Origin: Raillietiella orientalis
Taxonomy: Eukaryota
Direction: 5' to 3'
Assembly: GCA_036172245.1 (NCBI GenBank)
Contig: JAYWIR010000026.1
Location: 1-64,000 of the forward strand
DNA length: 64,000 bases
Positions 4,096 to 53,798 of the stretch are shown here, one piece after another. Both the position numbers and the translations under genes were made by a program. Every line of letters starts with the position of its first letter. Position 1 is the first letter of the stretch. The notes beneath the pieces are model-generated. The model searched no databases. It was not told the DNA's origin and worked only from the letters and a program-made list of their open reading frames with translations.

Positions 4096-4272
4096 GAAGG
4101 TCGCAACTGCGGCGGCGATGCAGAGGGTGCTGCTGGCGGCGGCAACGGTGGCAACGTCGAAGGCTGCGCCTTCGGCGGCGGCGTCCCAGACGGGATCCGC
4201 TGGCGTCCACGCGGTACAGGGCGTGACGCCATCTTGTTCGGCTGCGGCGGCGCATTCCTTTTCGTATGCGTC

Positions 4273-24900: not shown

Positions 24901-25002
24901 CGGAACTTGCTAGAAAAAGGTTCCCATCGGTACTTTCACACCGGTCAAAGAGACCACAGCAGAAAAAGCCGCTGCGCTTCCGAAGAGGTCGGGTCCGCAA
25001 AG

Positions 25003-28553: not shown

Positions 28554-31500
28554 GAGTGCGGACGTGTTTTTCTTCGCTCTCGTCTCCGTGCTTTCATCCT
28601 CTTCATCTTGGCGTCGTACATTTTGACGACGATGTCGACCCAACTCAAAGCTACTGAAGTTGGAGGAACAGCATCCGGATCTGCAATCGCGGAACCGACG
28701 GCCGCCTCCACTTCGTCTTTCTCGCCAATGGAGAGGAGTTTTGCTGACGTTGCTGCCACAGCAGCCGTCAAACGAAAACCACTCGACGAGTCGGAGTTGC
28801 GGGAATACGTAGCCCAAGGTTATAGACCTGCTCTCCGATATAAGGTGAGTGGCTTTCTTTCTGCGCGCGACGGAAATCAGTTCAACGATGAACTGACCCG
28901 TGTTGGCGCGCGGGAGGACGACCTTCTCGCCATTATGCCCGTAAAAGACATGGGCTATTTCAAGGTGCGTAGCAAAGACGCTGCACTTGTGCAACGCTTG
29001 CTGCGCACCCCGTTGTCGATCCGTGGCCAGAAGGTCTTCCCGGCCGCCATGGACGACTCATTTGTGGCGGAGATTTTCGACATCGAGACGGAAATCTCCG
29101 ATATTGATATTCGGAACGCGTTGGCAAAATTCCCCACGGTCCATGAGCTGTGGAGGGTGCGTAGCAACCTCAAGGACTTCCCGTCCATACACAGCGGAGT
29201 CGCTGGAGTCCGGCTTACCATGCCGGACCGCTGTCTGCTGCCCACCAAACTACAGGTGAAAGACACGGTCGTTCACCTGTGGTTCGTGGGAAAAGTAAAA
29301 ACGTGCGAGCAATGCGGGAAGGAGGGGCATTGTTTGGATAAATGCCCCTCTGGAAAATGCCGTTATTGCAAACTATCCGGGAACCAATTGAAAACTTGCC
29401 CGGATCTTTTGCGAAAAAAGGCAGCCGCGGAGCTTCATCGTAAGAAACAAAGCGCGGATAAAAAGAAAAACTCTGCGAAAGACCTGGAGACCCCACGGTA
29501 GAAATTCCGAAAAAACGCGAGGCGGAATGTCGCCCCAAAGCAGCAGGAAACCTCGCACGCGAAGCCCTGCGCTCCCCCTCTCGCGGCAAGGAAGCCGCAA
29601 AAGAAAGGGTGCGGGGAATCCGGGGCAATGGTAAGTCTCCCTAGGCGCAATAGCTGTCCTCACCAAGCACGCCCGGCTCTTTCGGAGTTCGAGCAACCGG
29701 CGGGGACGTCAATGGACAACGGCGGTAAGAACACTTCCAGTACCGTCAGATCCATTCCTTCACCTCCTGCAGTGGCTGAGAAGCTTAAATCCGGTAAGAA
29801 GGGTTGTGCCGTGTCGACTTCGAAAGTCGGCAAAAAAAAATCCGTGTCGCGATCCAACACCGCGAAAGCGAAGAAAAATCTCACGCCGTCGCAGTCGGAG
29901 AGCAAGCTCTCGACTGGCGCGGATGCCATGCCAACGAAGGGATTAAAAGCCCTTCCGAAAGCAGCGTCCATGTCGAGCGTGTCGAAGCCATCCAAAGTGC
30001 TCCCGTCCAAAGACAAGGATGGCATCAAAGATGGCAATGGAGCACAATCTCCATTTACGGCGCCACGCGAAGTGAGGAACCGTAATGAAGTAAAGAAGAC
30101 TTCAGCAAAGGTCCCTCGTGCAACTGCGCGTGAGCACGCTGAAAACGCGCGCGCCGGGAAAGTAGCCGTCACCAAAAGCGATGCTCAGGAGACGGAAAAA
30201 GACAACAGGACAGCAGTCAATCCAGCAGAACCTGTCACTACTTCGCGGAAGGCCGAAACCCGATCGAACATGCGCCGGTCGGACTCCAAAATGGATGCCG
30301 TTCCGATCACCGAGACGAGGACAACTCGTTCAAAAGCGTGTGCGCGCCGATCAAAAGTAGGCAGCCAGGCAACGCTCGCCGCGAAGCAACGGTAAGTCTC
30401 CACGAAACCCGACGGGATTAAGCCTGGCGTGGAGGCATTACATGCATGCAGAACGACGGAGGACGGTGGCGACCGTCCCCTCCAGTCAGTCGTGCTGCTC
30501 GCCGTCTGCTCGCCGGATAAAGCGAGCAAAAAGCCGCCACCTTCCCAGCAGTAATGCGGGGAATCGCATCTTCTCGTCGTCTGTCCGTAACTTCTTGGAA
30601 CGTGAACGGACTACAAAACGACAAGAAGAGGCGATTAGTAGCCAACGCCCTGCGCCCCTTCGACCTCGCGCTCCTGCAGGAGATTCACGTAATCTCCGAC
30701 GAGCAGGCAGCCGAAATCGAGGAGCGCGCAGGCGGAACGCTACATTGGCGGTGCGGCGGCGCACACACGTGCTGCGTCTTGTTCCTCGTAAGAGGAAAAA
30801 TGGCGGAAGCGGTGCGTAGTGTTCGTTTCGATGACGACGGGCGGATAGGCCAGCTTGTCATCAAGTGGTCCGAGTCCATCGATCTCGTCGTTACGAACGT
30901 CTACGCGCCGAGTGGCTCTCGCTACCTCGAAGAAAGAGTAGCTTTCTTTGGTGAGGTGCAGAGCCACTGGCTCAACAACTCCGGCTTTTAACTGGTGCAC
31001 CTCGTCGCTGGGGACTTTAACGTCCGCCTGCTCTCCGACGATTGGAGCAGCCCGAGGGAGCGCGCGCTGCCCATCGAGATGTGCGCGTCAGTGCACGCCG
31101 CCAAATTGATGGTCAGCGAACCTGGAATGGAAAGATCGCTCGATTACGTTTTCCTCGATGAAAACCTGCATTCGCGTGTGGGTAGGAGAGGAAGATTGTT
31201 GACTAGGCTTTCTGACCACCACAGGTTGGGGTTTTTGATCCTTCCGCCAGGCAGGGGGCCTCCGTTGCAAAACTGGAGGATGCAGGCGGATTGGCTTAGC
31301 CAACCGGAGGCTGCGGAGCGTCTTCGTGGATACCTCCGAGGCTTTGCCATTCAAGAACTTGCGGACTGGGACGATCTCAAAAGATCTGTCCGCGAGTTCT
31401 GCTGTCAATTCCCCTTGCAACGGCTTCCACGCGGTTTCGGAGAGGGCGTGGCCAACAGTAGAGACTTTCTGCAGGACCGCACGTTTTCGAGACGCGCGGA

Positions 31501-32531
31501 TGTCGGGCGTCTCGCAGAGTACAAGGCGAGGGCCGAGCGCCAGGTCTGGCAGTCCGGAGCAGCATGCCTGTTGGACGACAAGTGCCAGGAATGTTCGGCC
31601 CCAGCCGAAGTACGCCGCATTGTGAGACGCTACTACTTCTCGCTGTACGCGGAATCCTCGACGGAGGATATTCTCTCTGAGATACTCCTGTCTCAGGATG
31701 CTCGTGTTGTCGGCGAGGAGGAACGCGAACGCCTCAACGAGCCCTTCACGGCGGATGAATTTTCGTCCGCCGTCGCTGGGCTGAAGTGACGAAAGGCGCC
31801 ATGCGAGGATGGGCTCCCTGGAGAGTTTTATCAGTGCTTTGAAGTGGAGCTCATTCCCTTGATGCTGAGACTCGCGACGCTGATGAGTGAATCCGGGAAT
31901 GTCCCGGATTCCTTCCGCTCAGCGAAGGTGCGTCTCCTGCCGAAAGGCGGAGACTTGCGTCAACTTAACTACTGGCGTCCGATCACCTCTGTGTACTCGG
32001 ACGTCAAGTTGTTTTCCAAACTGTGGGTCGCGCGGTTAGGAAGTATCGCGGAATCTGTGGTGAGCCCGGAACAAACCTACGCGGTTCCGGGACGATCCAT
32101 GGAGGCGAACATCCTTTTCTCGCGTACATGGATGCATTTGCAGGAAGTTGTTGCGCAGGAAAGCCAGGCTGCTGCGAAAGTCACTGCCGCAGGCAAGGAG
32201 AACAGGCGCCGATGGCAGGAGGGAACGCCAGGCGCCTTGGCGTTAGCGGTCGATTTCCACAAGGCGTTCGACTGCGTAACCGAGTAGCTGCTTTTGGAGC
32301 TTATGGAACGCCTTGGGTTCCCGGCGCAACTCCTGCTGTACTTGCGCGCGTGCTGCCGCCACATGCTAACATGCATTACTTCCAGCGGCTGCCGCGTGTA
32401 TGGTATTCCCGTTCGTAGGGGCATCCAACAGGGCGACAGCTTAAGCCCGTTGCTCTTCTGCATCTTCTTAGAGTTGGTGCTAAGAGCATACAGGCTGACG
32501 CTGTCTCACTTGCCAAGCTCCTGCTCGGGAA
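28554..32531 (+). mobile_element. Family B LINE copy B1, left part (5' UTR, ORF1 28632-30554, ORF2 to just before YADD)
   Basis: Near-identical by eye to the reverse complement of 39145-43114. TAATG junction at 30552-30556; APE and RT motifs; several premature stops. Confidence 0.92.
28560..28571 (+). promoter_or_regulatory. Putative internal promoter motif GGACGTGTTTTT (also at 521, ~6401, 26486, ~43097, 45533, 53817, 56112)
   Basis: Present within ~25 nt of every intact 5' end, in otherwise unalignable UTRs of families A, B and D. Function is inferred. Confidence 0.5.
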
Positions 32532-33871
32532 GTCGCGAGCCCACCGTGAGCAGCGACGACCGGGACTTCAAGAAGGCGGCGGAAGAGTTGGCAGCCATGC
32601 TTTAGCAGCCTCACAAGGCCCAGAAGAAGGCCTTGAGGCGTCCGGCTGAGGCGAAAGGACCGGAGACTTCCGAGTCCGAAGCTGGCAAGGCTCCGGCTGT
32701 CGCTTCCCCGAAGCGCAAAGCCGGCCGCAAGGTAGGCAACCCGCGGCGCTCCGCACCTCCACCGGCGGAGGAGGAAATGCGGTCGGACCACGACGACGGG
32801 GAGGCGATGTCCGCGAGGTCTCGCGACTCCTCGCCGGAGACGTCCCTGGCCAAGCAGGATCCTCCAACCACCACCAGAACCACCGACGGACCGCCTCCTT
32901 GAGAGGAAAAGCCCGTCGCAATGGATACACAACTCCCGCCTGCTGAACAGCAGGCGGAGGACGGTAAGCAAACACCATAAAGCCACCAACGCGAGGACTC
33001 TTCTCCTGCCGGCGACTGCGCGTAATCTGTTGGAACGTCAACGGGTTGCGCGACGACGGCAAGAGGAGAGAAGTGGCCGCCAGCCTGCGGGACTTCGACC
33101 TGGCGCTTCTGCAGGAGACGCACGTTCTCCACGCAGGGGAGGCTCAGGAAATCGAACGGATCGCAGGCGGGCGGCTCGTATACCAAAACGGGAGAGACCA
33201 CACCCGCGGTGTGGCTTTCATGCTGAAGCCAGCCGTCGTTAATGCGCTGCGCGACGTGCACTTCGACGGGGAAGGTCTAATCGGGCAGCTTGTTGCCAAG
33301 TGGTCCGACGCGATCGACCTCGTCGTGACCAATGTGTACGCGCCCGGCACGAGCCACAGGCGCGGGGAACGCACTGCGTTCTTCGAAGGCCTGCGGCGAG
33401 ATTGGCTGGCCGAAGCAGACATGCGAAAGGCGCACCTCATTGCCGGGGACTTTAACGTCCGCCTGCTGGCAGGTGCGCCCGACATTCGCGCACAGCTGGT
33501 CAACGAGATGTGCGCTGCCATGCACGCGCGCAACTTGTTGGCCGGTGACGCCGGGACGGAGACGAGGATCGACCACATGTTCCTCGACAACCACCTGTGT
33601 TCGCGGGTGGGAAATCGAGGGGCAGTGCCATCCGAACTTTCCGACCATCCTCGGCTCGTGCTAGAAAGACACCCGCGCGGTAGAAGTCCACCCTCTACAG
33701 CGTGGCGTTTGCCAGGGGACTGGTTGCGCCTCGCAGGAGCAGCGCAACATCTTCGCTCGTTCCTGCAAGGCTTCCATCTGCAGTCGCTCGCGGACTGGGA
33801 CGACTTGAAGAGCTCAGTCCGCGAGTTCTGCGACCAGTTTCCCCTGAACCGTCTCCCTCCAGGTTTCGGCG
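32532..33871 (+). mobile_element. Family C LINE (5'-truncated), left part: ORF1 C-terminus and complete APE
   Basis: FKKAAEELAAML; ORF1 stop at 32978-32980; CWNVNGL, LQETH, NVYAP, AGDFN, IDHMFLD, SDH, ending LPPGFG. Confidence 0.9.
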
Positions 33872-34076
33872 TTGTCACCCGGGTACGCCCCGGGCGTTTA
33901 TTAATAAACTTTACATGCGTGGTACAAGGCCTTACCACGGCCGTAAACACAGGACCTGTCGGGACACCGGGACGCAGCCCGGCGTGGCACTCCCCGACAG
34001 CGAAGGGGGATGGGGATAAGACAAAAGGTAAAATAAAAAGAAACAAACAAAAAGAAGTTGGAGGGCAGAGAAGGGA

Positions 34077-37000
34077 TCACTGTTCGCTGTGGAGAGGGCC
34101 CATCCGTCGAACGAAGCCCTCGAGGTCAGTCCTCATATTCCCCAGTTGGGGCCATCCGGCAGCTCTTCGCAAGAAGCGTTGGGCATATGGGATGACATCC
34201 CTCGCGTGTTGACCCACTCCTTCCTTGTTGGTGTCGCTCCACGCCGCCACGATGCCTCGGACGCAGCACAAGGCTGCAAGGGCTGCGGCTGGCTGCAGGG
34301 CGTCCTTCACGAAGAGGGGCCGAAGAACGTCTCTAGGGGAACTGCCCGTTGGGAGACCGAGGATCGTCCCAAACCGTTCCCAAAGGGGACGAAGGGCAGC
34401 ACAGTCCACAATAAGGTGGGAGAGCGATTCCCGCTCTCCGCACCTGACACACGCAGGATCCACAACTCCTCTTGTCCAGTGAGAGCGGCGTACGTTGAAG
34501 GGTAAACTCCAATGCAACAACAGCAACGCCGACTCTTTCCACTTAAGAGGCAGGATCCTGGATTCCTGAAGAAGCGACGGCCACTTCAGCACATCCATAG
34601 GGATGGCCAGCAGCTCGCTCCATCTTCTTAGTCCTCGCGGCTGGACGCTCGGGGTCGTGGCGTCTGCCAGTTCTCCTGTTGTCCAGCCGCTGATCAACTT
34701 TTCGCGTCCCTCGATGCAGCAGGAGACTTGCCACCTTGGCGTACGGCTGCTGTGAAGTGCCCTCTTCAGGAAGGGCAGCGCCGTAGCTAGACAGGTCGTC
34801 TCTGCCCACATGCATCTTGCTGGAATCTCCAGGAGATTCCGCAGCGTGCAGCGGGCGTAGGGGCTGCATCGGAGACGATTCCACGTCTCGTGGCTTGTCT
34901 TGTTAACCACTGCCCACGTTCCAATATTTTCCTCCAGCCAGGCGGGGGAGTTGGCGGGGCAGCAAACCATCCAGCTGTTCTCCTTGGCCAATGTTGCCAT
35001 GCGCCCGAGCAGTAGGCCGCATCTTCGCATCTTCCGGCCACGGCTCAGAAGAAAAGACGCGAGTCCATCGCACCGGGACACACGGTTGGCCAGGAGGCGG
35101 GCCGGAGTGCACCAAGGGGTGTTCCACATCTTTGCTGCGATGGCGAGGGTTCGCCACCGCAGCTGCTTTTCCACGCGCTCCAGCGTCAGCAGGCCAAGAC
35201 CGCCGCCCCGACGCGGAGCGCACAAGTCCTTCAGTGGGACTCGGGGCCTCCCCTTGCCCCAAAGGGCGATACGGAGGAGGTCCCTCGTCCTTTTCTTGGA
35301 TTCCACGGTGGGAGCGCAAACAAAAAGCAAGGGGCGGAGGATGGGGGCCGCGAAGGCGTTCCAAACCGCGGCCCGTTCCGGCAAGTGAAACTTGCCTTCC
35401 AGGAACGGGCCGATCGCCGTCTGCACTTTTTGGAGGCAGCTGGACCACGCTTCCGCAGGGGAGTAGTCCCCCAACGGCACACCAAGGTACTTGAAGCACC
35501 TTGCCGTGGGGATCCCCAGACGGACCCAGTCCTGCTGCCCTGCCCACGCCGCACCTATTGGCACAACCGACGACTTCGCCCTGTTAACCTGCAGTCCGGT
35601 CCCGCGGCTGAGCAGATCGAAGAAGTCTCCGACCGCCTTCGCCGGGATGGACATTGGCAACAAGAGCAGAAGATCATCGGCGTACGCTGCTACGGCGGGC
35701 GTGCCGGGGCACGAGCTCGGCAAGGGGGCCAAAGTCACCCTGTACGCTCTCAGCAATAACTCAAAGTAGGTGCTAAAGAGCAGGGGGCTGAGGCTATCGC
35801 CCTGCCTTATGCCCCGCCGCACCGGCACGCCATACACCTTCTGTCCACTGAAACAGACGGTAATCATCGCATTCCGCCAGCAAGAGCGCAGGTAGGAAAT
35901 CAGGGAGGGTGGGAAGCCCATGCGACCCAGGAGCTCCAAGAGGAGTTCCTGGTCTACACAGTCAAACGCCTTGTGGAGATCGACTGCGAGCGCTAGGGCC
36001 CCCTTCCCTGCCCGGGGGTCCCTTCCCAGCCCGGCTGGCGGCCCCAATGTGGGGTTGCCGACTTTCCCTATCCCTTTCTTCTCTCTTCTCTGCTGGTGCA
36101 CCCATGTGCTTGCGAAGAAGAGGTTGGCATCCATACTTCGACCGGGAACAGCATAAGTCTGCTCCGGGCTAATTACGGATTCTGCCACCTGCCCCAGACG
36201 CGAAGCCCATAGCCCTGCTATCAACTTGGCGTCCGTATTCACGATTGTGATCGGACGCCAGTTCTTTAAATTCCTGAAGTCTCCCCCTTTCGGAAGGAGC
36301 CTCACTCTGGCTGACCGAAACGAGGCGGGAACATCGCCTTCATCTCGGATCAGCCTGATCAACTTAAGCAGCAGGGGTGCCAGCTCTTCCGCGAAGCTCT
36401 GAAAGAACTCCGCAGGCAAGCCGTCTTCCCCTGGAGCTTCACGCCTCTTGAGCCTTTTGATACCGGCGAGAATTTCGCCGGTGGTAAAAGGCTCGTCGAG
36501 GATTTCCATCTCCTCCTCCCCTATTGCCGGGGTGCCATCCGGAAGCAAGCGTCGAGAGGCGTTTCGATCCGGGGGCTCCCTGGCGTAAAGGGAGGAATAA
36601 AAACTCCGCTCGAGATGCCGTACCGACGCCAGGGACGAACATTCGCGGCCCTGGCCGTCCAGCAAGCTGGCAGACCCGGATTGCCAGGCTCGGCGTTCGG
36701 CCCCGGCGCGGTACTCGGCCAGGCAACGGATATTAGAGGTTCTCTCGTACCTACGAGCCTGTAAATAGGCCCAATGGTTGCGAGCACCCTCGCCGAATCC
36801 GGGGGGCAGGCGATCCAGGGGGAACTGCTCACAGAACTCGCGGACCGATTCCTTAAAAAGGTCCCAGTCCTGGAGATTCCGGAGCGTGACGCCTCTAAGG
36901 TATTCGCGAAGGTGTTCCTTCGCACCTGAGAGTCGCGTCCAGTCATCCGGCAGACGCCAATCCCTGGATGGCGGTCCTTTGTCGCGAGGCCGCATCTCGA

Positions 37001-37213
37001 AAATTAGCCGGGAATATTCCGACAACGTCGACACAACCCTCCCCCGTTTGCCGACCCGTGAACACAGGTCAGCGTCCAGGAAGACGTGGTCGATGCTGCG
37101 GACCATTCCTTTCTCACCCGCGAACAAGTTGCGCGCACGCATGGCGGCGCACAATTCGTTCATCGCGTTCACTTTTGTTTCCGGCTCACCTGTTAGCAGG
37201 CGGAGATTGACAT
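34077..37213 (-). pseudogene. A1 ORF2, downstream part (APE C-half, RT, zinc finger): an uninterrupted ~1045-codon frame separated from its N-terminus by B2
   Basis: IDHVFLD, APGEDGLPAEF, WRPITIVNTDAK, DLHKAFD, GIRQGDSLSPLLF, AYADD, FKYLG, CVRCGERESLSHLIVDC. Confidence 0.93.
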
Positions 37214-37526
37214 TTATCACCCGGTCACGCCGGGGCGTTTATTAATAATAATAAACTGGTCAGGGACAATGTCCCCAACCAAGAGAACGACAGAGAACAT
37301 AGAAAAATTACCGGCACGCAGGCCTGTTAAACAAACCGCTCGCAGCGTGGGGGGAATGAGGGGAAACAAACAAAAATCAAAAACTGGAGGGAAGGGTAAC
37401 GGGTTTTTGGTTAGGCTCCGTACTCACGGGGATTTATACGATGAGCACCTAAAATGTTGCGGAGCCTATGGGGACGCGGGTGTAAAAAGAAAATACAAAT
37501 TTAGTTTATGGAGGGTAGGGCAATGA

Positions 37527-40500
37527 TCACCGGGTTGGCCGCTGATGAGGGTGTGTAAACCGGCGGTGTATTGCGGCGAGATTCCTCTTTGTCTCCTCTG
37601 TCAAATGAGGCCATCTAGCGGATGCTCCCATGTAGAAGGATGCTTTGCTGATTACTTCTTGGTGCTGTCCGTTGATTACCAACGCCTGGCGGACGGAAAC
37701 TATCGCGCGTATGCAACCGATGGTTGCAATCCTTGCGCTTAGTGAAAGCCCGCTCGGCGTGAAGAATCGTCGCAGCAAGTCTCTTGCGGTGTCCACGGGA
37801 TGCAATAGTGCCGTTGCCAGCCTACGCCACAGTCCTTGTAGGACACCGCAGTCCAGAAGTAGGTGCGGAATCGACTCCGTCGATCCGCACCGAACGCAGT
37901 TCCCAGACGCAAGTCCCCAGGAGTCACGATGCCAACGCTCGTTGCACTGAAAACCCCAGTGAACGAAAAGCAGCACGGCTTGTTTCCAAGCAAGGGGGAG
38001 CAGCGAACTGTCAATACACTGTGGAGGGACTACAAGTTCTTCGGGGGTGACAGCAAGTTCTTCTGACCATCGGAGGAGTCCCTTTGCAGTAACACGAGGA
38101 GTGGCGGCGTCCGCCAACTCACTCGTCTTCCAGGCGCCAAGGATTTTGGTTTTTCCCGCTATCGTGCAGGAAACCTCCCACCTCGTCGGTTAGTAACTGT
38201 CGTTTCTTGCCCTGAGTGCAGACAGCGCTGCGGCAAGAGGCGTGGCAGCCAGGGTAGAAAACTTCACCTAGTCCTGCAGTACTTCTTCCAAGGATCGTGG
38301 AAAAAATTGGCGCAGGGGGCGAAGATCTTCAGGGCGTATTCCTTGGAACGCCGCCCAGGATTCAACAGACTCCTGCCGCCAAGCTTCAAAGTTCATTGGG
38401 CGGCAGGAGATCCAAGAGTGTGCTTCCAGAAGTGCGGTCAACTGCCGCAATGGAAAACCGAAACCCCGCTTCCTGTATTGAGTGCCCGGCAAAAGCGAGA
38501 GAAATCTTCCGCTGCCGGCGCATCTCCGCAGGAAAATGCGAGCTGGCACACACAGGGGGGATGTCCATAGCTGGGCACACAGTGCCAGCAGTCGGAACTG
38601 CACCTGCAGTCCGATTCGCTCCATTGTCAGGATACCCAAACCAGCATCCCGACGCGGAGCTGACAAATCTTTAAGGCGGATCCTGGATCTCGCCGGACCC
38701 CAGAGAGCGTTCCTGAGCTGGCGCTTAGCCCGCTGTTTTGCCGCATAGGGGGGGTCCAAAACAAAAAACAGGGGACGGAGGAGGGGGCCACAAAGGTGTT
38801 CCAAATAGTCGCCCGTTCCTGCAAGGTAAACTTGCCGTTAAAGAACGGGCTGATGGCCAACTCTGCTTTCTGAAGACAGTCCGCCCACGCTTCGGCTGCG
38901 CCGAAAGCGCCCAAGGGAACGCCAAGGTACTTAAAGTACCCGCCCGTGGGGATCCATAGGCGGATCCAGTCGGACTGCCCCTCCCACGACGTACCCACAG
39001 GAACGACCACGCTCTTCTCTCTGTTCACGCTCACGCCCGCTCCCCGACGAATCAGGTCGAAGAAATCCTCGACACTGGACGCCGGGGTGGACATGGGGAG
39101 CAGAAGAAGCAGGTCATCAGCGTAGGCGGCCACGGCAGGCGTTCCCGGGCAGGAGCTCGGCAAGTGAGACAGCGTCAGCCTGTATGCTCTTAGCACCAAC
39201 TCAAAGAAGATGCTGAAGAGCAACGGGCTTAAGCTGTCGCCCTGTCGGATGCCCCTACGAACGGGAATACCATACACGCGGTAGCCGCTAAAAGTGATGC
39301 AGGTTAGCGCGTGGCGCCAGCACGTGCGCAAATACAGCAGGAGTTGCGCCGGGAACCCAAGGCGTTCCATAAGCTCCAAAAGCAGCTTCTGGTTTACGCA
39401 GTCGAACGCCTTGTGGAGATCGACCGCGAACAACAAGGCACCTGGCGTTCCCTCCTGCCGTCGGCGCCTGTTCTTTTTGCCTGCGGCAGTGACTTTCGCA
39501 GCAGCCTGGCTTTGCTGCGCCACAACTTCCTTCAGCTGCATCCATGTACGCGCGAAAAGGATGTTCGCCTCCATGGATCGTCCCGGAACCGCGTAGGTTT
39601 GTTCCGGTCTCACCACAGATTTCGCGATTCTTCCTAACCGCGCGACCCACAGCTTGGAAAACAACTTGACGTCCGAGTTCACCAAGGTGATCGGACGCCA
39701 GTTGTTAAGTTGGCGCAAGTCTCCGCCTTTCGGCAGGAGACGCACCTTCGCAGAGCGGAAGGAATCAGGGACATTCCCGGATTCACTCATCAGCGTCGCG
39801 AGCTTAAGCATCAAGGGAAAGCTCCACTGCAAAGCACTGATAAAACTCTGCAGGGAGCCCATCCTCGCCTGGCGCCTTTCGTCTCTTCAGCCCAGCGATG
39901 GCGGACGAAAATTCATCCGCTGTGAAGGGCTCGTCGAGACGTTCGCGTTCCTCCTCGCCGACAACACGAGCATCCTGAGACAGGAGTATCTCAGAAAGAA
40001 TATCCTCCGTCGAAGATTCCGCGTAGAGCGAGGAGTAGTAGCGTCTCACAATGCGGCGTACTACGGCTGGGGCCGAACATTCCTGGCACTTGTCGTCCAA
40101 CAGGCATGCTGCTCCGGACTGCCAGACCTGGCGCTCGGCCCTCGCCTTGTACTCTGCGAGACGCCCGACATCCGCGCGTCTCGAAAACGTGCGGGCCTGC
40201 AGAAAGTCTCTACTGTTGGCCACGCCCTCTCCGAAACCTTGTGGAAGCCGGTGCAAGGGGAATTGGCAACAGAACTCGCGGACAGATCTTTTGAGATCGT
40301 CCCAGTCCGCAAGTTCTTGAATGGCAAAGCCCCGGAGGTATCCACGTAGATGCTCCGCAGCCTCCGGTTGGCTAAGCCAATCCGCCTGCATCCTCCAGCT
40401 TTGCAACGGAGGCCCCCTGCCTGGCGGAAGGATCTCAAACTCCAACCTGTGGTGGTCAGAAAGCTCAGTCAACATTCTTCCTCTCCTACCCACACGCGAA

Positions 40501-41117
40501 TGCAGGTTTTCATCGAGGACAACGTGATCGAGCGATCTTTCCATTCCAGGTTCGCTGACCATCAAGTTGGCGGCGTGCACGGACGCGCACATCTCGATGG
40601 GCAGCGCGCGCTCCCTCGGGCGGCTCCAATCGTCGGAGAGCAGGCGGACGTTGAAGTCCCCAGCGACGAGGTGCGCCACTTGGGAGCCGGAGTTGTTGAG
40701 CCACTGGCTCTGCACCTCACCAAAGAAAGCCACTCTTTCTTCGAGGTAGCGAGAGCCACTCGGCGCGTAGACGTTCGTAACGACGAGATCGATGGACTCG
40801 GGCCACTTGATAACAAGCTGGCCTATCCGTCCGTTGTCATCGAAACGAACACTACGCACCGCTTCCGCCATTTTTCCTCTTACGAGGAACGCGACGCCGC
40901 ATGTGTGTGCGCCGCCGCACCGCCAATGTAGCGTTCCGCCTGCGCGCTCCTCGATTTCGGCTGCCTGCTCGTCGGAGATTACGTGAATCTCCTGCAGCAG
41001 CGCGAGGTCGAAGGGGCGCAGGGCGTTGGCTACTAATCGCCTCTTCTCGTCGTTCTGCAGTCCGTTCACGTTCCAACACGTTACGGACAGACGACGAGAA
41101 GACGCGATTCCCCGCAT
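37527..41117 (-). pseudogene. B2 ORF2 (APE-RT-zinc finger, ~1200 codons), frameshifted
   Basis: Track ORFs 39804-41117, 38627-39862, 38268-38804 and 37527-38117 are consecutive pieces carrying all APE/RT motifs and CVRCGSTESIPHLLLDC. Confidence 0.9.
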
Positions 41118-43036
41118 TACTGCTGGGAAGGTGGCAGCTTTTTGCTCGCTTTATCAGGCGAGCAGACGGCGAGCAGCACGACTGGCTGGCGGGGACGGTC
41201 GCCACCGTCCTCTGTCGTGCTGCATGCATGTAATGCCTCCACGCCAGGCTTATCCCCGTCGGGTTTCGTGGAGACTCCGCGTGGCTTCGCGGCTAGAGTT
41301 GCCTGGCTGCCTACTTTTGATCGGCGCGCACACGCTTTCGAACGAGTTGTCCTCGTCTCGGTGATCGGAACGGCATCCATTTCGGAGTCCGACCGGCGCA
41401 TGTTCGATCGGGTTTCGGCCTTCCGCGAAGCAGTGACAGGTTCTGCTGTATTGACAGCTGTCCTGTTTTCGTTTTCCGTCACCAGAGCATGCTTTTGGTG
41501 ACGGCTGCTTTCCCGGCGCGCGCGTTTTCAGCGTGCTCACGCGCAGTTGCACGAGGGACCTTTGCTGAAGTCTTCTTTACTTCATTACGGTTCCTCACTT
41601 CGCGTGGCGCCGTAAATGGAGATTGTGCTTCATGGCCATCTCTGAAGCCATCCGCGTCTTTGGACGGGAGCACTTTCGATGGCTCCGACACGCTCGTCAT
41701 GGACGCTGCTTTCGGAAGGACTTTTAATCCCTTCGTTGGCATGGCATCCGCGTCAGTCGAGAGCTTGCTCTCCGACTGCGACGGCGTGAGATTTTTCTCC
41801 GCTTTCGCGGTGTTGGATCGCGACGCGGATTTTTTTTTTGCCGACTTTCGAAGTCGAAACGGCACAACCCTTCTTACCCGATTTGGGCTTCTTAGCCACT
41901 GCAGGAGGTGAAGGGATGGATCTGACGGTACTGGAAGTGTCCTTACCGCCGTTGTCCATTGGCGTCCCCGCCGGTTGCTCGAACTCCGAGAGAGCCGGGC
42001 GTGCTTGGGAAGGACAGCTATTGCGCCTAGGGGGACTTACCATTGCCCCGGATTCCCCGCACCCTTTCTTTTGCGGCTGATCTGCCGCGAGAGGGGGTGC
42101 GCAGGGCTTCGCGTGCGAGGTTTCCTGCTGCTCTTGGGCGACATTCCGCCTCGCGTTTTTACCGAATTTCTGCCGTGGGGTCTCCAGGTTTTTCGCAAAT
42201 TTTTTCTTTTTATCCGCGCTTTGTTTTTTAAAATGGAGCTCCGCGGCTGCCTTTTTTCGCAAAAGATCCGGGCAATTTTTCAATTGGTTCCCGGATAGTT
42301 TGCAATAACGGCATTTTCCGGAGGGGCATTTATCCAAACAATGCCCCTCCTTCCCGCATTGCTCGCACGTTTTTACTTTGCCAGAGAACCACAGGTGAAC
42401 GACCGTGTCTTTCACCTGTAGTTTGGTGGGCAGCAGACGGCGGTCCGGCATTGTAAGCCGGACTCCAGCGACTCCGCTGTGTATGGACGGGAAGTCCTTG
42501 AGGTTGCTACGCAACCTCCACAGCGCATGGACCGTGGCGAATTTCGCCAACGCGTTCCGAATATCAGTATCGGAGATTTCCGACTCGATGTCGAAAATCT
42601 CCACCACAAATGAGTAGTCCATGGCGGCCGGGAAGACCTTCTGGCCACGGATCGACAACGGGGTGCGCAGCAAGCGTTGCACAAGTGCAGCGTCTTTGCA
42701 ACGCACCTTGAAATAGCCCATGTCTTTTACGGGCATAATGGCGAGAAGGTCCTCCTCCCGCACGCCAACACGGGTCAGTTCATCGTTGAACTGATTCCCG
42801 TCGCGCGCAGAAAGAAAACCACTGACCTTATTTCGGAGAGCAGGTCTATAGCCTTGGGCTACGTATGCCCGCAACTCCGACTTGTCGGGTGGTTTTCGTT
42901 TGACGGCTGCTGTGGCAGCAACGTCAGCAAATCTCTCCATTGGCGAGAAAGACGAAGTGGAGGCGGCCGTCGGTTCCGCGATTGCAGATCCGGATGCTGT
43001 TCCTCCAACTTCAGTAGCTTCAAGTTGGGTCGACAT
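41117..43036 (-). pseudogene. B2 ORF1 (RRM-like region, two zinc knuckles, basic disordered tail), two frameshifts
   Basis: MSTQLEATEV.., CEQCGKEGHCLDKC, CRYCKLSG(N/H)QLKNC; pieces 41753-43045, 41479-41865, 41117-41482. Confidence 0.88.
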
Positions 43037-43581
43037 CGTCGTCAAAATGTACGACGCGAAGATGAAGCGGATGAAAGCACGGAGACGAGAGCGAAGAAAA
43101 CCACGTTCGCACTCGATTGAAATCTCCCGCTATCAGGTGAGCCTTTCGCACATTGGTATCCGCCAGCCAGTCGCGCTTCAGGGTTTCCAGCAGCCTGGTG
43201 CAGTCGCGGTAACCCTGTTTGCCGCTGGGGCCATACACGTTTGTGACGATTAGGTCGATCGAGTCGTACCAGCTGAGAATCATTTGACCGATCCGACCGT
43301 CGTCATCAAACCGCACGCCCTTTACGGCAGCGTCGATGGCCGGCTTCACGAAGAACGCGACCCCGCAGGTGTTGCGGAGGCCGCATCGCCAATACAACCG
43401 ACCCCCCGCGATCGTCTCGATTTCCTGGGCGTCTGCCGCGGTGATCACGTGGATCTCCTGCAGCAGCGCCAGGTCGAGCTCACGCAGGGTGTCGGCTGTA
43501 TCTCGCCTGTTGCGTCGTCGCGCAGCCCGTTGATGTTCCAACAGGCCGCGCGAATCCGACGGCGACTGGTGAGCCCAGGTG

Positions 43582-45456
43582 TTAGTCCAGGGAAAACGGC
43601 GATGCGGCGTCCGCCACCTGCTGGGACGGGACGCTAGGTGGAGGGGGAGGAGGGACAGGTACTGAAGGCACCTTTTCCTCCTCCTCCATCGGTGCCGGCG
43701 CGTCGGCCGGATCACCCGCACGTGGAGTCGCGCCTACCTGTTCGCCTTCCTCCATAGGTTCGGGCTGCTCAGGTTTCGCGACTGCGGGGAGGACTTCACC
43801 CCCCTGCTCTCCCTCCTCCATGGGGGTGGCCGACTCGACGGCTTCCGGGCGTAAGTATTCCCTCTCCGGGATTCCCACGCTGCCGCTTCCTTCCGGTTTC
43901 TCCTCCTCGCTGGTGGAGGGGAGGCGCCTCCTGGGTTTCTGGGACTTGCGTCCCGACTTCCTGGGGGGTGCCTCCGAGGAGAAGGATCCGCTTCCGGCCC
44001 CCAGGTCGCACTCACCTGCGGGGGCCTTCTTCGTCGGAGCCGACCTGCGTACGCCCTTGCGCGAAGGGGTTTCGCGCTTGGCGAGCGTTGCTGCGAGCTC
44101 CTCCGCCGCTTTCTCGAAGGCCGCGTCTTCGCCAGCGGCGACCGTTGCCGCGGGCTGCTCCGCGACCTTATCGATCGCGGCTTCATCGTTCACGGCGAAC
44201 GTTGCCGCGGGCTCCTCCGCGACTTTATCGAGCGCGGCGTCCTGGCTGTCGGCGCGCGAGTCTCGCGTCTCACCCTCTCCACGTAGATTGGGCTCGTCCA
44301 CGCGAGTATTCATCGCGTCCGCATCAGCTGTTCCGCGAACATTCCCGCGGGCGGACTCGGCAGGAACGGCTAAGCGTTCCAGTGCCACCGAGCATTCGCG
44401 GAGTTTTTTTTTTGAAAGCGGCGCGGCTTTTTTCTTGTTGCCGGCAGTTTTCTTTACCGAATTTTCTTCTATCATCACTTTCTTTTTTTTCTCTTTTCTG
44501 GCCTGAACCAGCTGCCAACCCTCCTCCATTCCCGCGTCCACGGGAGCTATTTCCTCCGACGTATGTACGGGAGGAAGGGAGGCTGGCAGTTGGGAACGGC
44601 CATTTTCGCGAGCTGGTCTTTCTACCAGCTTTCCACGTTTTCCCTGCGCCTTTTTGGAGGCAGGGGGCACCGGGGTGGGGCGCTTGGGGCACACGCGCCG
44701 AACGTGACCCTTTTCGCCGCATAGGTAGCACACAATGTTCGGACACCTTTTTCGTAGATGCCCTACTGCATTGCAGTAGCCACAAAATTGGCGTTTTCCC
44801 ACGTACCAGAGGTCCACCGCTTCTTGGCAGACCTCCAGCTTGTGGGGAAGCGCACCACCCTCTTTTACTGTGATACGCGCCGCAGCTTGACCCCCGAAAA
44901 GGCTATTGTAGCCTTGGAAAATCGTGGACTTCGGCCACAACGCGTGCACTTCTCCGTGCTCTTGTAGCTGTTCTCGAACCGCTGACCTCGTCATGCGACT
45001 TGAGATCCCAGTGAGATGGACCACCACCGAGCGGTCCATCGTTATCGGTAAGATCTTCCGACCATCAACGATCAGCGGGTCGGTGATCAGGTGTCGGGCC
45101 AAGGTGATATCCTTGCATACCACCTCGACCCGCTGCCCGCCGCTGAGGACGCAGAGGCCGTCGAGATCTTTTTCAAAAATATTGGCGTTCTGCAGCGCCT
45201 TCGTAAAGGCGCGTGCAGTTCGCCCATCGAAAAGGTTGCCTACCTTGTAGACTAGCGAGGGTTTATACCCCGCTTTCTTGTAGGCTTCCATCTCGGCCAT
45301 GGCTTCCACGCTAGGCGCGGCCACCATGGCGCTCCAGGACCTCGGCGTCGCCGGGGACGATTCCGGGGCGGATGCCCCTGATCCAGTAGGCTGTGGGGAC
45401 GAACAAGCCTCCATCACGCCTACTTCCATCGCGGTGTCCTCTGGCAACGCTGCCAT
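43582..45456 (-). CDS. A1 ORF1 protein, 624 aa, Tx1/L1-type nucleic-acid-binding protein
   Basis: Open frame from MAALPEDTAMEV; LWYVGKRQF-CGYCNAVGHLRKRC-PNIV-CYLCGEKGHVRRVC; low-complexity C-terminus. Confidence 0.9.
   Translation of the reverse strand: MAALPEDTAMEVGVMEACSSPQPTGSGASAPESSPATPRSWSAMVAAPSVEAMAEMEAYKKAGYKPSLVYKVGNLFDGRTARAFTKALQNANIFEKDLDGLCVLSGGQRVEVVCKDITLARHLITDPLIVDGRKILPITMDRSVVVHLTGISSRMTRSAVREQLQEHGEVHALWPKSTIFQGYNSLFGGQAAARITVKEGGALPHKLEVCQEAVDLWYVGKRQFCGYCNAVGHLRKRCPNIVCYLCGEKGHVRRVCPKRPTPVPPASKKAQGKRGKLVERPARENGRSQLPASLPPVHTSEEIAPVDAGMEEGWQLVQARKEKKKKVMIEENSVKKTAGNKKKAAPLSKKKLRECSVALERLAVPAESARGNVRGTADADAMNTRVDEPNLRGEGETRDSRADSQDAALDKVAEEPAATFAVNDEAAIDKVAEQPAATVAAGEDAAFEKAAEELAATLAKRETPSRKGVRRSAPTKKAPAGECDLGAGSGSFSSEAPPRKSGRKSQKPRRRLPSTSEEEKPEGSGSVGIPEREYLRPEAVESATPMEEGEQGGEVLPAVAKPEQPEPMEEGEQVGATPRAGDPADAPAPMEEEEKVPSVPVPPPPPPSVPSQQVADAASPFSLD
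44080..44245 (-). repeat. In-frame 57-bp (19-aa) tandem repeat x3 in A1 ORF1
   Basis: DAALDKVAEEPAATFAVND / EAAIDKVAEQPAATVAAGE / DAAFEKAAEELAATL. Confidence 0.8.
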
Positions 45457-45558
45457 CGGACACCGACGATGTGCACGCACAAATCACTTAAGAAGAAAAA
45501 ACACTCGCTTTGCCACGCAGGCGGAGCGCAGGAAAAGCACGTCCTCTCTCCACAGCGG

Positions 45559-48544
45559 GGATTCGGCGAAGGGCTGAGGAACGACCGGGCATACCACCAC
45601 GCCCGTCTTTACTCTAGGACTCCCGACGTTCGACGCCTGGCGGAGTATAAAGCTGGGGCTGAGCGACAGACCTGGCAATCCGGGTCGGCCAGCTTGCTGG
45701 ACGCCCAAGGCCAAGAATGCTCAGCTCCGGCAAGAATAAACCGCATCCTGCGGGACTATTACTCCTCCTTGTACGCGCGTAGAACAACGGAGCGCGCCGT
45801 GGCGCAGCGCTTGCTGCCGCAAGGCGCCCCCGCGCTGCAGGAGGAGCAGGCACATCAACTCGAGGAGCCTTTCTCGATGTCGGAGATCGTCTCCGCCATC
45901 GGAAAGCTCCGAAAGAGGAAAGCACCAGGGGAAGACGGTCTGCCCGCGGAGTTCTACTAAGGCTTCGTGGCGGAGCTGGCCCCCCTGGTGCATCGGCTAT
46001 GCATGCTGATCCGAGAACAAGGGGACGTCCCCAAATCGTTCCGGTCAGCTAGAGTACGTCTTCTGCCGAAAGGAGGAGACAATCGCAACGTAGGCAACTA
46101 ACGTCCCATCACAGTAGTGAATGCGGATGCGAAGTTGCTTGCCAAGCTTTGGGCTGAGCGACTGGGACGGGTGGCGGAATCCGTGGTGAGTCCGTTGCAG
46201 ACATACGCTGTTCCAAGACGAAGCATGGAGGCCAACCTGTTCCTCGCCAGTACATGGTGCCAGTTGCAACAAGGCGAAGACCAGGGAGGTCAAGAGAATC
46301 CTGGATTCTCCTCTGACCAGGGAGGGGACGCCCTTCATGGAAGAGCCGCGCCCGGTGCCCTTGCGGTCGCAGTCGATCTGCGTAAAGCGTTCGATTGCGT
46401 CGACCAGGAACTGCTTCTGGAGCTCCTAGAACGCGTGCGATTCCCGGCCGTCTTCCGGGCTTACCTGCGCTCCTGCTGGCGCTTCGCTCTAATAAACATC
46501 TCTTTTAGCGGCCGGCACGTGTACGGCGTGCCGGTTCGGCGTGGCATAAGGCAGGGTGACAGTCTGAGCCCCTTGCTCTTCAGCATCTACTTCGAGCTGG
46601 TGCTGAGGGCATACAGGGAGACTCTGGCAACCCTGCCAAGCTCGTGTCCCGGCACGCCTGCCGTGTCGGCCTACGCCGACGACCTTCTGCTCCTGCTCCC
46701 CGGGTCCACCCCGGCGTCGGCGCTCGACGATTTCTTTGAGTTGCTGCGCCGCGGGACGGGCCTCGAGGTGAACAGAGAGGCATCTTCCATCGTTCCAACA
46801 TCACCACAACTTTTCAACCATACGGCGTGGGCCGGACGGCCGGACTGGATCCGCTTGGGGATCCCCACGGGCAGGTGCTTCAAGTACCTTGGCGTTCCGT
46901 TGGGGGACTTCTGCGTTGCAGAAACCTGGTCCGACCGTCTCCAAAAGGTGGAGTTGGCGATCGGCCCGTTCCGGAACGGCAAGTTTTACTTGCAGGAGCG
47001 GGCCGCGGTGTGGAACGCGTTCGCGGCCCCCCTCCTTCGCCCCTTACTTTTTGTTTGCCCCGCCCCTCCCATCATACAGAGACGGACGAAAGCCCTCTTG
47101 AGGACTGCCGTTTGGGGCACAGCGAGGTCGCGAGTCCGATTGAAAGACTTGTGCGCTCCACGCAGAAATGGTGGCTTGGGCCTCCTTACGTTGGAGCGCA
47201 TCCAACTACAGACAACACTTCGGAAGTTAGCCCTTGCGGCTAGCTTATGGATGACGCCATTGTGCGATCCGGCACGGCTCCTCGCCAGAAGAGCGACCGG
47301 CTGCGAAGGATTGTCCTCGATCCTCGTGGCCTACCAGCGCAGACTCTCCAACTGTGGCCATGATTTGCACTAGATGGTCGTCCTGATGAGGGAGAATACC
47401 TGGATCTCCTGCATCCCCTCGAACTGCACTGCCTGGCTTCAGGAGTCAGCTTCCGCGTGGGCTAAGATCAACGGCACGAGCGAGGCGGAATACAACTGCC
47501 TACGACGAGGACCGTACGCTCGACAGCCGCTGCAGGAGATTATCAACACGCCCCGGAAGTTTCTGTGGGCTTCTTTCAGCCCCCTTGCCCCCGTTCTGTC
47601 CTCCCTGAAAAACACTAGGAGCAGCAACGAGCTGGCATCGTGGGAAATGTCCTGCCTCATCTGAGGCAGGAAAAAACCTTCAAAGGCGTGGACGACTCGA
47701 GAGCTCACGGACGCTGCCACCCCGAGCGTCCCGCCTCACGGACTTGCGCGCTGGGGAGAGCTGCTCGCAATACATCCGGAGGAGGTGAAGTGGCCCCCAG
47801 CGTGTTGGGATTGCGGCACACTTCCGTTGAAGTGGCAGGAGACGGCGTTGCTATTTCTGCACTGGGGACTGTTAAGCAGAGCACGCCTGTCTCACTGGAC
47901 ACTGGGAAATGTGGATGCCCGCTGTGTCGAGTGCGGAGAAAGGGAAACCTTCCCGCATCTCACCCTCAAGTGTGTCGCCCTGGATGGACTCTGGAGTCGA
48001 ATCGCCCCACTCCTCCATCTTCCAGTAGGCTACCCTAAGGAAATTTACCGTCGCCTCTTTCTGCGTGACGGCCTGCGCACCGCTGCGTCTCTAGCAGTCC
48101 TCTGCTGCGTGCGCAGCATTGTGCAAAGGTGGCACGCCAGAAGAAGAAGCCCAAGATGCAAAGACGCCAACCACTGGACGACGATCTCTTTAGAGACGGC
48201 GACAAGGTGGCGTCTAGATTTCACAATAAAAACTAAACTTGACTGCATCCTCAACAGGATGCGGAGGACCGACCCAGGCACCCAGTGATCCCTTCCCTTC
48301 CCCCCCTCTCCCCATGCAACTGTTTGCTCCCTCGTTATCTATCTTTTTGTTTATTTTTGTGCTAGTTTTCCCTTCCCATGCGCCTCGGGAATGGACCTAA
48401 CCGGTCTATGCACCGGCAACCGACACGTCCAGCAAGGTGGTAGAACCCAGTGTTTTCCCACAGAAAAAATCTTTTTAAAGACTTTATTATCTAATTTTTG
48501 TAGAAAATTAGAATAATCAATGCCCCGGCATATCCAAGTGGCAA
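45559..48544 (+). mobile_element. Family C LINE, right part (linker, RT, zinc finger, 3' UTR)
   Basis: Resumes GFGEGLRNDRAY; DLRKAFD, GIRQGDSLSP, AYADD, CVECGERETFPHLTLKC; ends AATAATCAATGCCCCGGCATATCCAAGTGGCAAA. Confidence 0.9.
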
Positions 48545-50453
48545 ACGCTGATGACCTGCTTCTTCTGCTCCCCATGTCCACCCCGGCGTCCAGTGTCGAG
48601 GAATTCTTCGACCTGATTCGTCGGGGAGCAAGCGTAAGCGTGAACAGAGAGAAGAGCGTGGTCGCTACTGTGGGTACGTCGTGGGAGGGGCAGTCCGACT
48701 GGATCCGCCTGGGGATCCCCACGAAAGCGAACTTTAAGTACCTTGGCGTTTCGTTGGGCGCTCTCGGCGCAGTTGAAGCGTGGTCCGACTGCCTTCAGAA
48801 AGCGACGCTGGCCGTCAGCCCGTTCATCAATGGCAAGTTCACCTTGCAGGAACGGGCGACTATTTGGAACACCTTTGTGGCCCCCCTCCTCCGTCCTCTC
48901 TTTTTTGCTTTGAACCTCCCCTATGCGGCAAAACAGCGGGCTTAACTCCTGCTTGGAAACGCGCTTAGGGGTCCGGCGAGATCCAGGATCCGCCTTAAAG
49001 ATTTGTTAGCTCTTCGTCGAAATGCTGGTTTGGGTATCCTGACAATAGAGCGAATCGAACTGCAGGTGCAGTTCCGACTGCTGGCACTGTGTGCCTAGCT
49101 ATGGACATCCCCCTGTGTGTGCCAGCCCGCATTCTCCTGCGGAGATGCGCCGCAAGCGGAGGATTTCTCTCGCTTTTGCCTGGCACTAAATACACGAAGC
49201 GGGGTTTCGGGTTTCCATTGCGGCAGTTGACCGCACTTCTGGAAGCTCACTCGTGGATCTCCTGCCACCCAATGAACTTTGAAGCTTGGCGGCAGGAGTC
49301 TGTTGAATCCTGGGCGGCGTTCCAAGGAATACGCCCTGAAGATCTTCGCCCCCTGCGCCAATTTTTTCCTCGATCCTTGGAAGAAGTACTGCAGGACGAG
49401 GTGAAGTTTTCTACCCTGGCTGCCACGCCTGTTGCCACAGCCCTGTATTCCCTCAGAGCAAGAAACGACAGTTACCAACCGGCGAGGTAAGAGGTTTCCT
49501 GCACGATAGCGGGAAAAGCAAACTCCTTGACGCCTGGAAAACGAGTGAGTTAGCGGACGCCGCCACTCCTCGTGTTACTGCAAAGGGACTCCTCCGGTGG
49601 GCAGAAGAACTTGCTGTCACCCCCGAAGAACTTGTAGTCCCTCCACAGTGTGTTGAAGTTCGCTGCTCTTCCTTGCTTGGAAACAAGCCATGCTGCTTTT
49701 CGTTCACTGGGGTTTTCAGTGCAACGAGCGTTGCCATCGTGACTCCGGGGGACTTGCATCTTCCAACTGCGTTCCGTGCGGATCGACGGAGTCGATCCCG
49801 CACCTACTTCGGGAATGCAATGTCCTACAAGGACCGTCGCGTAAACTGGCAACAGCGCTAATGCATTCCGTGGACACCGCAAGAGACTTGCTGCGACGAT
49901 TCTTCACGCCGAGCGGGCTGTCCTTAAGCGCAAGGATTGCAACCATCGGTTGCATACGCGCGATAGTTTTCGTCCGCCAGGCGTTGGTAAACAACGGACA
50001 GCACCAAGAGGTAATCAGCAAAGCATCCTTCTACATGGGAGCATCCGCTAGATGGCCTCATTTCACAGAGAAGGCAAAAAGGAATCTCGCCGCAATACAC
50101 CGCCGGTTTACACACGCTCAGCAGCGGCCAAACCGGTGATCATTGCCCTACCCTCCATAAACTAATTTTGTATTTTCGTTTTACACCCGCGTCCCCATAG
50201 GCTCCGGAATATTTCAGGTGCTCCCCGATTAAATCCCCGCGAGTACGGAGCCTAACCAAAGACCCGTTACCCTTCCCTCCAGTTTTTGATTTTTGTTTGT
50301 TATCCCCTTATTCCTCCCACGTTGCAAGCGGTTTGTTTACCAGGCCTGCGTGCCGGTAATATCTCTATGTTTCCTGTCATTCTGTTGGTTGAGGACATTT
50401 TGCCTGACCAGTTTATTATTATTAATAAATGCCCCGGCGTGACCGGGTGATAA
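48545..50453 (+). mobile_element. Family B copy B1, right part
   Basis: Resumes at ACGCTGATGAC (ADDLLLLLPMSTPASSVE); matches the reverse complement of 37214-39123 including the 3' UTR and hairpin. Confidence 0.92.
50424..50453 (+). terminator. Element 3' signal: AATAAA followed by a CCCGG-loop-CCGGG hairpin and TGATAA (variants at all 8 element 3' ends)
   Basis: Seen at 8683-8713, 13778-13807, 25003-25033, 33872-33902, 37214-37243, 48512-48544, 53768-53798 and partially at 61635-61652. Confidence 0.65.
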
Positions 50454-53400: not shown

Positions 53401-53798
53401 CTGTGTCCGTGGCATCGTGGCGGCATGGAGCGACGCCAATAACGAAGGAGTGGGTCCACACGCGAGGGATGTCATCCCATACTCCCAACGCTTCATGCGG
53501 AGAGCTGCCGGATGGACCCAACTGGGTAAATATACGGACGGACCTCGAGGGCTTCCTTCGACGGATGGGCCCTCCTCACAGCGTTTAGTGATCCCTTCCC
53601 TGCCTTCCAACTTCTTTTTGTCAGTTTATTTTTTATTTTTTTGTTGTTTTATTCCCATACCCCTTCGCTGCTGAGGAACGCTACGCTGGGCTGCGTTTTG
53701 GTGTCCTGGCAGGTCGAGTGTATATGGCCGTGAGCAAGGCCTTGTACCGCGGATGTAGAGTTTTAACAATAAACGCCCCGGGCGTACCCGGGTGTAAA
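50454..53798 (+). mobile_element. A-type LINE 3' half starting at the GDF|N target site (right flank of B1)
   Basis: FN..LLTGEPETQVNAMNEL, IDYVFLD, SDH, RT motifs (YAND variant), finger; ends AATAAACGCCCCGGGCGTACCCGGGTGTAAA. Confidence 0.9.

Follow-up and report, generated by a model that had tools for sequence, protein, structure and literature searches.

Long interspersed nuclear elements (LINEs) with site-specific insertion are known for ribosomal DNA (rDNA), telomeres, small nuclear RNA genes and a few DNA or long terminal repeat (LTR) transposons. Here we describe a locus at which LINEs themselves seem to serve as targets. It lies on contig JAYWIR010000026.1 of Raillietiella orientalis (assembly GCA_036172245.1), of which positions 1-64,000, referred to below as the window, were analysed, and it comprises four elements inserted one into another at 28554-50453. 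A preliminary description had read this nest as cyclic, "rock-paper-scissors" targeting among three LINE families, here called A, B and C (numbers denote individual copies). In our opinion, the nest is genuine and was probably built by successive sequence-specific insertions of L1-like LINEs that encode an apurinic/apyrimidinic endonuclease (APE), the cycle being a by-product.

Fixed landing sites inside other transposons are described for LINEs of the Tx1 clade: Tx1 in Tx1D piggyBac, Tx1-Mar in Mariner-N4_AMi, and Tx1-8_Crp and Tx1-4_AMi in LTR retrotransposons. In the same account, tandem insertions at one target are described and the clade is presented as an animal one (PMC4494074). The elements of our locus resemble those of Tx1 clade in their APE-type endonuclease, in the relatives of CCHC-bearing first open reading frame (ORF1) and in the fixed position and orientation they take inside other transposons. 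Unlike in the examples given in that account, the targets here would lie in coding motifs of LINEs from sister families within one clade, and targeting would be mutual among several lineages.

LINE clusters that grow by nested insertion into existing copies are formed by Zepp of Coccomyxa ("Chlorella") and by ZeppL-1 of Chlamydomonas. As far as the passages describing these clusters go, they consist mostly of 5´-truncated 3´ ends that belong to one family only, C. reinhardtii having a single ZeppL family (PMC3446292, PMC8226300, PMC9940879). The likeness to our locus lies in GC-rich L1-type LINEs and in LINE-only islands that arise from nested insertion. The difference is that most copies in the window are full length, belong to many lineages and occupy exact insertion points, whereas the same passages name no fixed targets for Zepp. 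Finally, R1/R2 and TRAS/SART elements combine sequence-specific nicking with target-primed reverse transcription into a multicopy target (PMC1919474, PMC7265360); their target is host rDNA or telomeric repeats and not, as here, the genes of other LINEs. In the literature searched, we found neither LINE lineages that target endonuclease or reverse transcriptase (RT) codons of sister LINEs nor any cyclic or rock-paper-scissors targeting among transposons.

Architecture of the nest

The four-level order B1 > C > A1 > B2 withstood re-examination. All eight boundaries (28554, 32532, 33872, 37214, 43115, 45559, 48545 and 50454) are placed as claimed, and each pair of flanks is collinear with an uninterrupted relative when aligned within the window. 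The outermost of the four, B1, lies on the plus strand. Its 5´ part (28554-32531) corresponds to B2 positions 1-3973 and carries the 5´ untranslated region, ORF1, APE and the RT up to ...LPSSCSG (94.7% identity over 3,979 columns; Kimura two-parameter distance, K2P, 0.053). Its 3´ part (48545-50453) corresponds to B2 positions 3992-5901 and begins with (N)ADDLLLL (92.0%; K2P 0.082). Because the halves match consecutive stretches of B2, they represent one element that was split by intervening DNA, with 18 bp gone.

Inside B1 lies C, also on the plus strand and 5´-truncated within ORF1. The 5´ part (32532-33871) contains the APE (Pfam Exo_endo_phos, E 2.4e-14) and stops with ...FPLNRLPPGFG (33870); the 3´ part (45559-48544) continues with GFGEGLRND and goes on through RT and zf-RVT to the tail ...GCCCCGGCATATCCAAGTGGCAA. 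This joint is collinear with unbroken ...RLPPGFGEGARN in A1 and A2 and with ...GFGEGVAN in B. The third level, A1, is on the minus strand. Its 5´ part (43115-45558) starts with CCGCTGTGGAGAGAGGACGTG... and includes an ORF1 of 633 codons with zf-CCHC as well as the N-terminal half of APE up to the GDFN codons; its 3´ part (33872-37213) includes the remaining APE, RT, a zf region and the 3´ hairpin tail ...CCCGGGTGACAA, with an open frame of 1,053 codons. The flanks of A1 stop in the GDFN codons (43116) and resume with those codons which, in C and B, come directly after GDFN. Innermost is B2 (37214-43114, minus strand), a full-length element of 5,901 bp with ORF1, APE, RT and zf-RVT, whose ORF2 is broken into several frames.

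Three of the four elements are bordered by short duplications. Around B1, the 9-bp ATTTCAATC is present on both sides: the left copy (28545-28553, plus strand) spells the codons D-F-N of GDFN and the right one occupies 50454-50462. Around B2, the 9-bp duplication reads on the minus strand ATTTCAATC at 43115-43123 and ATGTCAATC at 37205-37213. The 10-bp duplication around A1 consists of GGTTTCGGCG (33862-33871, plus strand) and GGATTCGGCG (45559-45568).

The nest continues outward. B1 is inserted into an A-like plus-strand host, A2 (~26470-28553 and 50454-53797). The 5´ part of A2, with approximate start at 26470, contains motif GGACGTGTTTTTG at 26486, ORF1 and the N-terminal half of APE up to the GDFN codons; its 3´ part opens with the second ATTTCAATC copy, contains the remaining ORF2, ends with the tail ...CCCGGGTGTAA and is ~90% identical to A1. 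The 5´ end of A2 adjoins E (25004-26458, minus strand), the 3´ part of an L1-like LINE with the C-terminal part of RT (tblastn match to residues 677-1046 of A1 ORF2) and a 3´ hairpin tail, AATAAACGTCCCGCCGTGACCGGGTAACAA, which terminates at 25004. We infer that the nest is at least six levels deep, the two outermost levels, which are not closed, being drawn from the single 5´ junction of A2 with E.

Removal of individual elements by coordinates gave different results for the three joints. When B2 and one duplicate are excised, an open frame of 1,248 codons runs through A1 across the joint GDFN/LRLL (a slash marks the joint or breakpoint), which restores the APE as had been proposed. Likewise, excision of A1 and one duplicate yields a frame of 431 codons in C through LPPGFG/EGLRND. 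Controls shifted by one base broke the C frame and altered the upstream frame of A1. The third restoration, that of the B1 RT upon removal of C, failed: the product ...SSCSG/NADDLLLL is in frame, but the 18 bp lost before ADDLLLL leave it six codons short when compared with ...SSCPGTPAVAAYADDLLLL in B2.

The order of insertions follows from the nesting, and stop counts fit it: in-frame stops in ORF-homologous segments drop inward from 12 in A2 through 7 (plus three frame changes) in B1 and 5 in C to 0 in A1. B1 and B2 were described as very similar; they are 92-95% identical without being near-identical. The accompanying statement that the period of B activity brackets the insertions of C and A1 is upheld by the nesting.

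As for the identity of the families, long frames of the window contain Pfam domains AP-endonuclease, reverse transcriptase and zf-RVT as well as CCHC knuckles in ORF1. PF03372 and PF00078 match in A, B and C alike, with the APE domain followed by RT as in LINEs of the L1 superfamily. The zf-CCHC match in A1 ORF1 has E 3e-6, and zf-RVT (PF13966) has E 8e-6 in C and is weak in B2. Among solved structures, the ORF2 parts match human LINE-1 ORF2p best (E 6e-42), along with the L1 endonuclease (E about 2e-5). This domain content identifies the elements as L1-like LINEs of APE type. Common to them are GGACGTGYTTTTY as a 5´ start motif (6 matches in the window, 0.53 expected) and a 3´ terminus built as AATAAA-Y-short GC hairpin-GA(Y)AA without poly(A), so that the poly(A) or A-rich tail of L1-type elements is missing here. 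Hallmarks of target-primed reverse transcription are present in the 9-bp and 10-bp duplications around B1, B2 and A1 and in the 5´ truncation of C. In place of the truncated single-family arrays described for Zepp, we see A1, B1 and B2 at full length and A2 and A3 beginning at a full 5´ end.

Comparison of the window with itself revealed related repeats that are 64-95% alike. The search for protein homologues returned 34 matches, one of them close (67%, on a 2.9-kb contig); Rfam returned 0 matches. A metagenome scan with the degenerate tail pattern of B and C gave 7 loci, none of which is similar to the window by blastn, and we regard them as chance matches. At 44080-44241, within the open ORF1 of A1, a 57-bp unit is repeated in tandem (2.8 copies, 79% matches).

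Insertion points in endonuclease and reverse transcriptase codons

Insertion into a fixed sequence of a repeated target is seen at 3/3 sites for B and in 2/2 C-type copies for A-type elements; the one event of C is treated separately below. The B sites share a 16-mer, GCGGGAGATTTCAATC. It has three matches in the window at no more than 1 mismatch and all three are directly adjoined by the 5´ end of a B element; the sole further match carries 3 mismatches and lies away from any GDFN site. Besides A1 and A2, the third occupied copy is A3 (53798-56105, plus strand), an A-type element broken at its GDFN site (GCGGGAGATTTCGATC) by the third B copy, B3 (56106-57955, plus strand), which corresponds to B2 positions 1-1849 (95.5% identity to B2; K2P 0.048). 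Ten APE copies in total reach the GDFN codons. Three of them, those of A1, A2 and A3, are occupied, and the seven free ones include B1, B2, C and G. Where spellings were read, B, C and G encode GDFN as GGG GAC TTT/C AAC.

Judged by these junctions, B is a putatively site-specific element. We hypothesize that its endonuclease recognises a stretch of ~16 nt at GDFN in the endonuclease genes of A-type elements and that B would then insert in sense orientation, giving rise to the 9-bp duplication. As a separate observation, the 5´ end of A3 (ACCTCCTAGGCCAG...GGACGTG) follows the tail of A2 (...CCCGGGTGTAA) with 0 bases between them, at 53797/53798. A2 and A3 thus form a head-to-tail tandem of A-type elements, both with B at GDFN.

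The second recurrent site is formed by the GFG/EG codons. Eight elements cover them, and the two that are interrupted are the two C-type copies. In both, an A-type element on the minus strand meets GFG/EG with its 5´ end, within ~3 nt. Next to the A1 case in the nest, the second instance is found at 4275-6766, where A4 (minus strand, 4275 to ~6420) adjoins a C-type fragment (plus strand, 6421-6766, 82% identical to C) that begins at codons homologous to GFG/EGLRND. A-type elements are thereby indicated to be site-specific as well: the lineage of A1 and A4 presumably recognises the GFG/EG codons of C-type elements and inserts in antisense orientation with a 10-bp duplication. Two further candidates were discarded. 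A5 (9947-11829) was considered as a third hit at GFG/EG and it starts 19 nt downstream of the site. Likewise, "C2" was not retained as a single C-type element, its RT part (K, 6770-8712) being more similar to A than to C.

The third edge, C into B, is of a different kind. C splits B1 at the YADD codons, which in B read ACGCTGATGAC, with loss of 18 bp that correspond to window positions 39124-39141 in B2 and to the codons TPAVAA of ...GTPAVAAYADD. The inserted copy is 5´-truncated inside ORF1 and lacks a duplication. Its 3´ hairpin is degenerate as well (-4.4 kcal/mol, z +0.84, versus -12 to -17 for A1, B1 and B2). In the tail of C (48495-48544), CCAAG replaces CCGGG, the GC hairpin is lost and the predicted stability is no better than that of shuffled sequences. 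There is one such event and the window holds no second instance of C in B; the left half of A2, which supplies the sole remaining C-like 5´ end, adjoins E at a different place. B-type DNA makes up about one third of LINE sequence in the window (by the sum of alignment coordinates), hence an untargeted landing in B is not improbable. The insertion of C at the YADD codons of B1 is most readily taken as a single imprecise event that may have been untargeted; chance insertion into an island rich in B accounts for it equally well. Group II introns, which are ribozyme-guided and occur in bacteria and archaea, home into YADD codons of RT genes. They resemble the present case in that a retroelement lands in conserved RT coding sequence of other retroelements; unlike them, eukaryotic LINEs of APE type are concerned here and YADD is hit in a single event.

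Explanations for the cyclic order

The explanation we favour, and consider probable, is that successive rounds of target-primed reverse transcription built the nest. Synonymous codons that are specific for each family at the target would set the host range, and the B > C > A > B cycle would arise as a by-product of many mutually targeting lineages packed in a LINE-only island. Target sequences do differ among families at synonymous positions, which makes family-restricted host ranges plausible. If such targeting holds genome-wide, there are three consequences. Firstly, it would provide a simple mechanism for growth of LINE-only islands without harm to host genes. Secondly, it would point to natural endonucleases with specificities of 9-16 nt. 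Thirdly, transposon ecology (niche use) could be read directly from junctions.

Several observations weigh against this explanation. Specificity is read from junctions only and the numbers are small, with three B events and two A events. The A4 case displays only its 5´ junction, both junctions being visible in the A1 case alone. The A-type sequence itself contains the target core GGATTCGGCG, which leaves any self-immunity of A hypothetical. Elements of A type are also found at other places: A2 against E, an A3-type part in ORF1 of an element F, and A3 behind A2. The families are 64-71% alike, and synonymous differences in their targets are therefore expected from drift alone as well. B2, although innermost, is more damaged in its reading frame than A1, into which it is inserted; its breaks (two or three frame changes, as many as four stops) may be private mutations or assembly errors. 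The order of the innermost events could in principle be altered if A1 together with B2 moved as one composite of 11.7 kb. We note separately that 4/5 small indels relative to contigs of a public DNA run, at 38782, 39819, 41490 and 41830, fall in or near the frame-change zones of B2, two of them in homopolymers.

In a literal reading of the cycle, three co-active LINE families would form a closed non-transitive circle whose cyclic dominance stabilises coexistence and builds arrays. We hold this to be unlikely, even though the three edges occur together in a single nest and each hits a conserved motif of ORF2, two of them repeat at the same site, and the synonymous differences in targets would permit family-specific host ranges. 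Edges in the reverse direction (A into B, B into C, C into A) are also missing among the resolved junctions, an absence that concerns a handful of copies. What speaks against the circle is above all its C-into-B edge, which is single, lacks a duplication and combines an 18-bp deletion with 5´ truncation, while the C-like half of A2 adjoins E elsewhere. Since B1 has a C-like left flank, the host class of B is not purely A. Moreover, hits on individual and often dead copies need not reduce the fitness of a family. Of the proposed cyclic targeting, the edges B into A and A into C thus stand, as they recur at the same nucleotide or within ~3 nt; the edge C into B does not reach that level. A clean cycle of three families has to be given up in face of ~sixteen LINE pieces with other edges in the window. 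The cyclic order is real as topology and does not amount to evidence for rock-paper-scissors dynamics; for a non-transitive system it offers two solid edges and one anecdotal one. The broader picture, a community of sequence-specific LINEs in which each lineage lands in a conserved coding motif of another, synonymous codon choice determines the host range and non-transitive cycles lead to coexistence, LINE-only islands and possibly centromeres, appears to us similarly doubtful.

Alternatively, no endonuclease specificity might be involved at all and B at the GDFN codons of A might have been spread by composite copying, gene conversion or recombination between copies. The same junction with the same duplication does occur three times, and the 3´ end of A2 is directly followed by the 5´ end of A3, both carrying B. 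In addition, B1 has a mosaic host, A2. The left half of this host is C-like (77% nucleotide identity to C in every bin; N-terminal APE 71% identical to C at the amino acid level versus 56% to A1), its right half is ~90% identical to A1 from the first base, and C-like sequence gives way to A-like sequence ~17 nt before B1 on the upstream side, with the A-type target making up the last 16 nt. The mosaic hints at recombination near the B site, which adds to the points against our explanation; A2 may descend from a crossover within conserved AHLIAGDFN and thus represent a recombinant lineage, or it may be a product of B-linked rearrangement. Composite copying would nevertheless require equal divergence of hosts and inserts. 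Over their first 1.85 kb, B copies are separated from each other by K2P 0.048-0.059, and the two parts of B1 differ from B2 by 0.053 and 0.082; K2P between the host flanks of B copies reaches 0.156-0.470. Since the hosts are far more diverged than the inserts, each B copy represents a separate insertion at the same nucleotide rather than part of a composite that was copied. Nor does the right host flank display any gradient of identity toward the junction (successive bins of 90, 93, 91 and 89%). We thus rejected composite duplication, and consider copying in this broader sense very unlikely compared with sequence-specific insertion.

That mis-joined repeats of ~95% likeness mimic nesting has hardly any chance of being true: the region is indeed made of repeats only and the frame breaks of B2 coincide with small indels in contigs of another run, two in homopolymers, but mis-joins would account neither for the target duplications that border three elements on either side nor for flanks that restore long open frames to the base, and the nested partners are only 64-71% identical at the junctions. 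Among the public runs listed, a single DNA run (0.29 of words) and no RNA run covers part of the stretch; the contigs of this DNA run on 30601-50600 are 95-99% alike. None of them bridges a junction, two extending 19 and 30 nt past the ends of B2, below the 31-nt rule.

Neighbouring elements and the rest of the window

LINEs account for ~84% of the window, in ~sixteen labelled pieces; the left 15 kb are resolved in part. The GC content is 55-62%, except for 12-26 kb with 44-50%. To the right of the nest, a B-related element, B´, adjoins B3 at B position 1849. B´ is in turn met by D (minus strand, from 61635 to the window end), which terminates ...CCGGGTGAAA in antisense orientation at the codons D-R-H-K-A-F-D of an RT motif (junction 61634/61635).

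To the left, K (plus strand, 6770-8712) and I (plus strand, 11841-13807) both end in antisense orientation at IQEL/ADWDD codons. Their hosts are H (minus strand, 8715-9548) and J (minus strand, ~13808-14710), respectively, with junctions at 8712 and 13807. From its sequence, IQEL/ADWDD looks like another fixed landing site.

A second deep nest is situated at the left edge (1-6766), with junctions checked in part. Its apparent order is C-type fragment > A4 > G > F > A3-type element. G, which extends to 1612, is broken after the LLNSD codons at 1611/1612. F (1611-552) is ORF1-like, and the 5´ part of an A3-type element (551-1) lies in its ORF1, with the junction at 551.

Between J and E, the ~10 kb at 14710-24700 (GC 44-48%) exhibit no LINE homology, and no Pfam match was obtained for the 50 frames of at least 70 amino acids located there. 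Close to the 3´ end of E, an ORF1-like fragment precedes it at 24697-24918.

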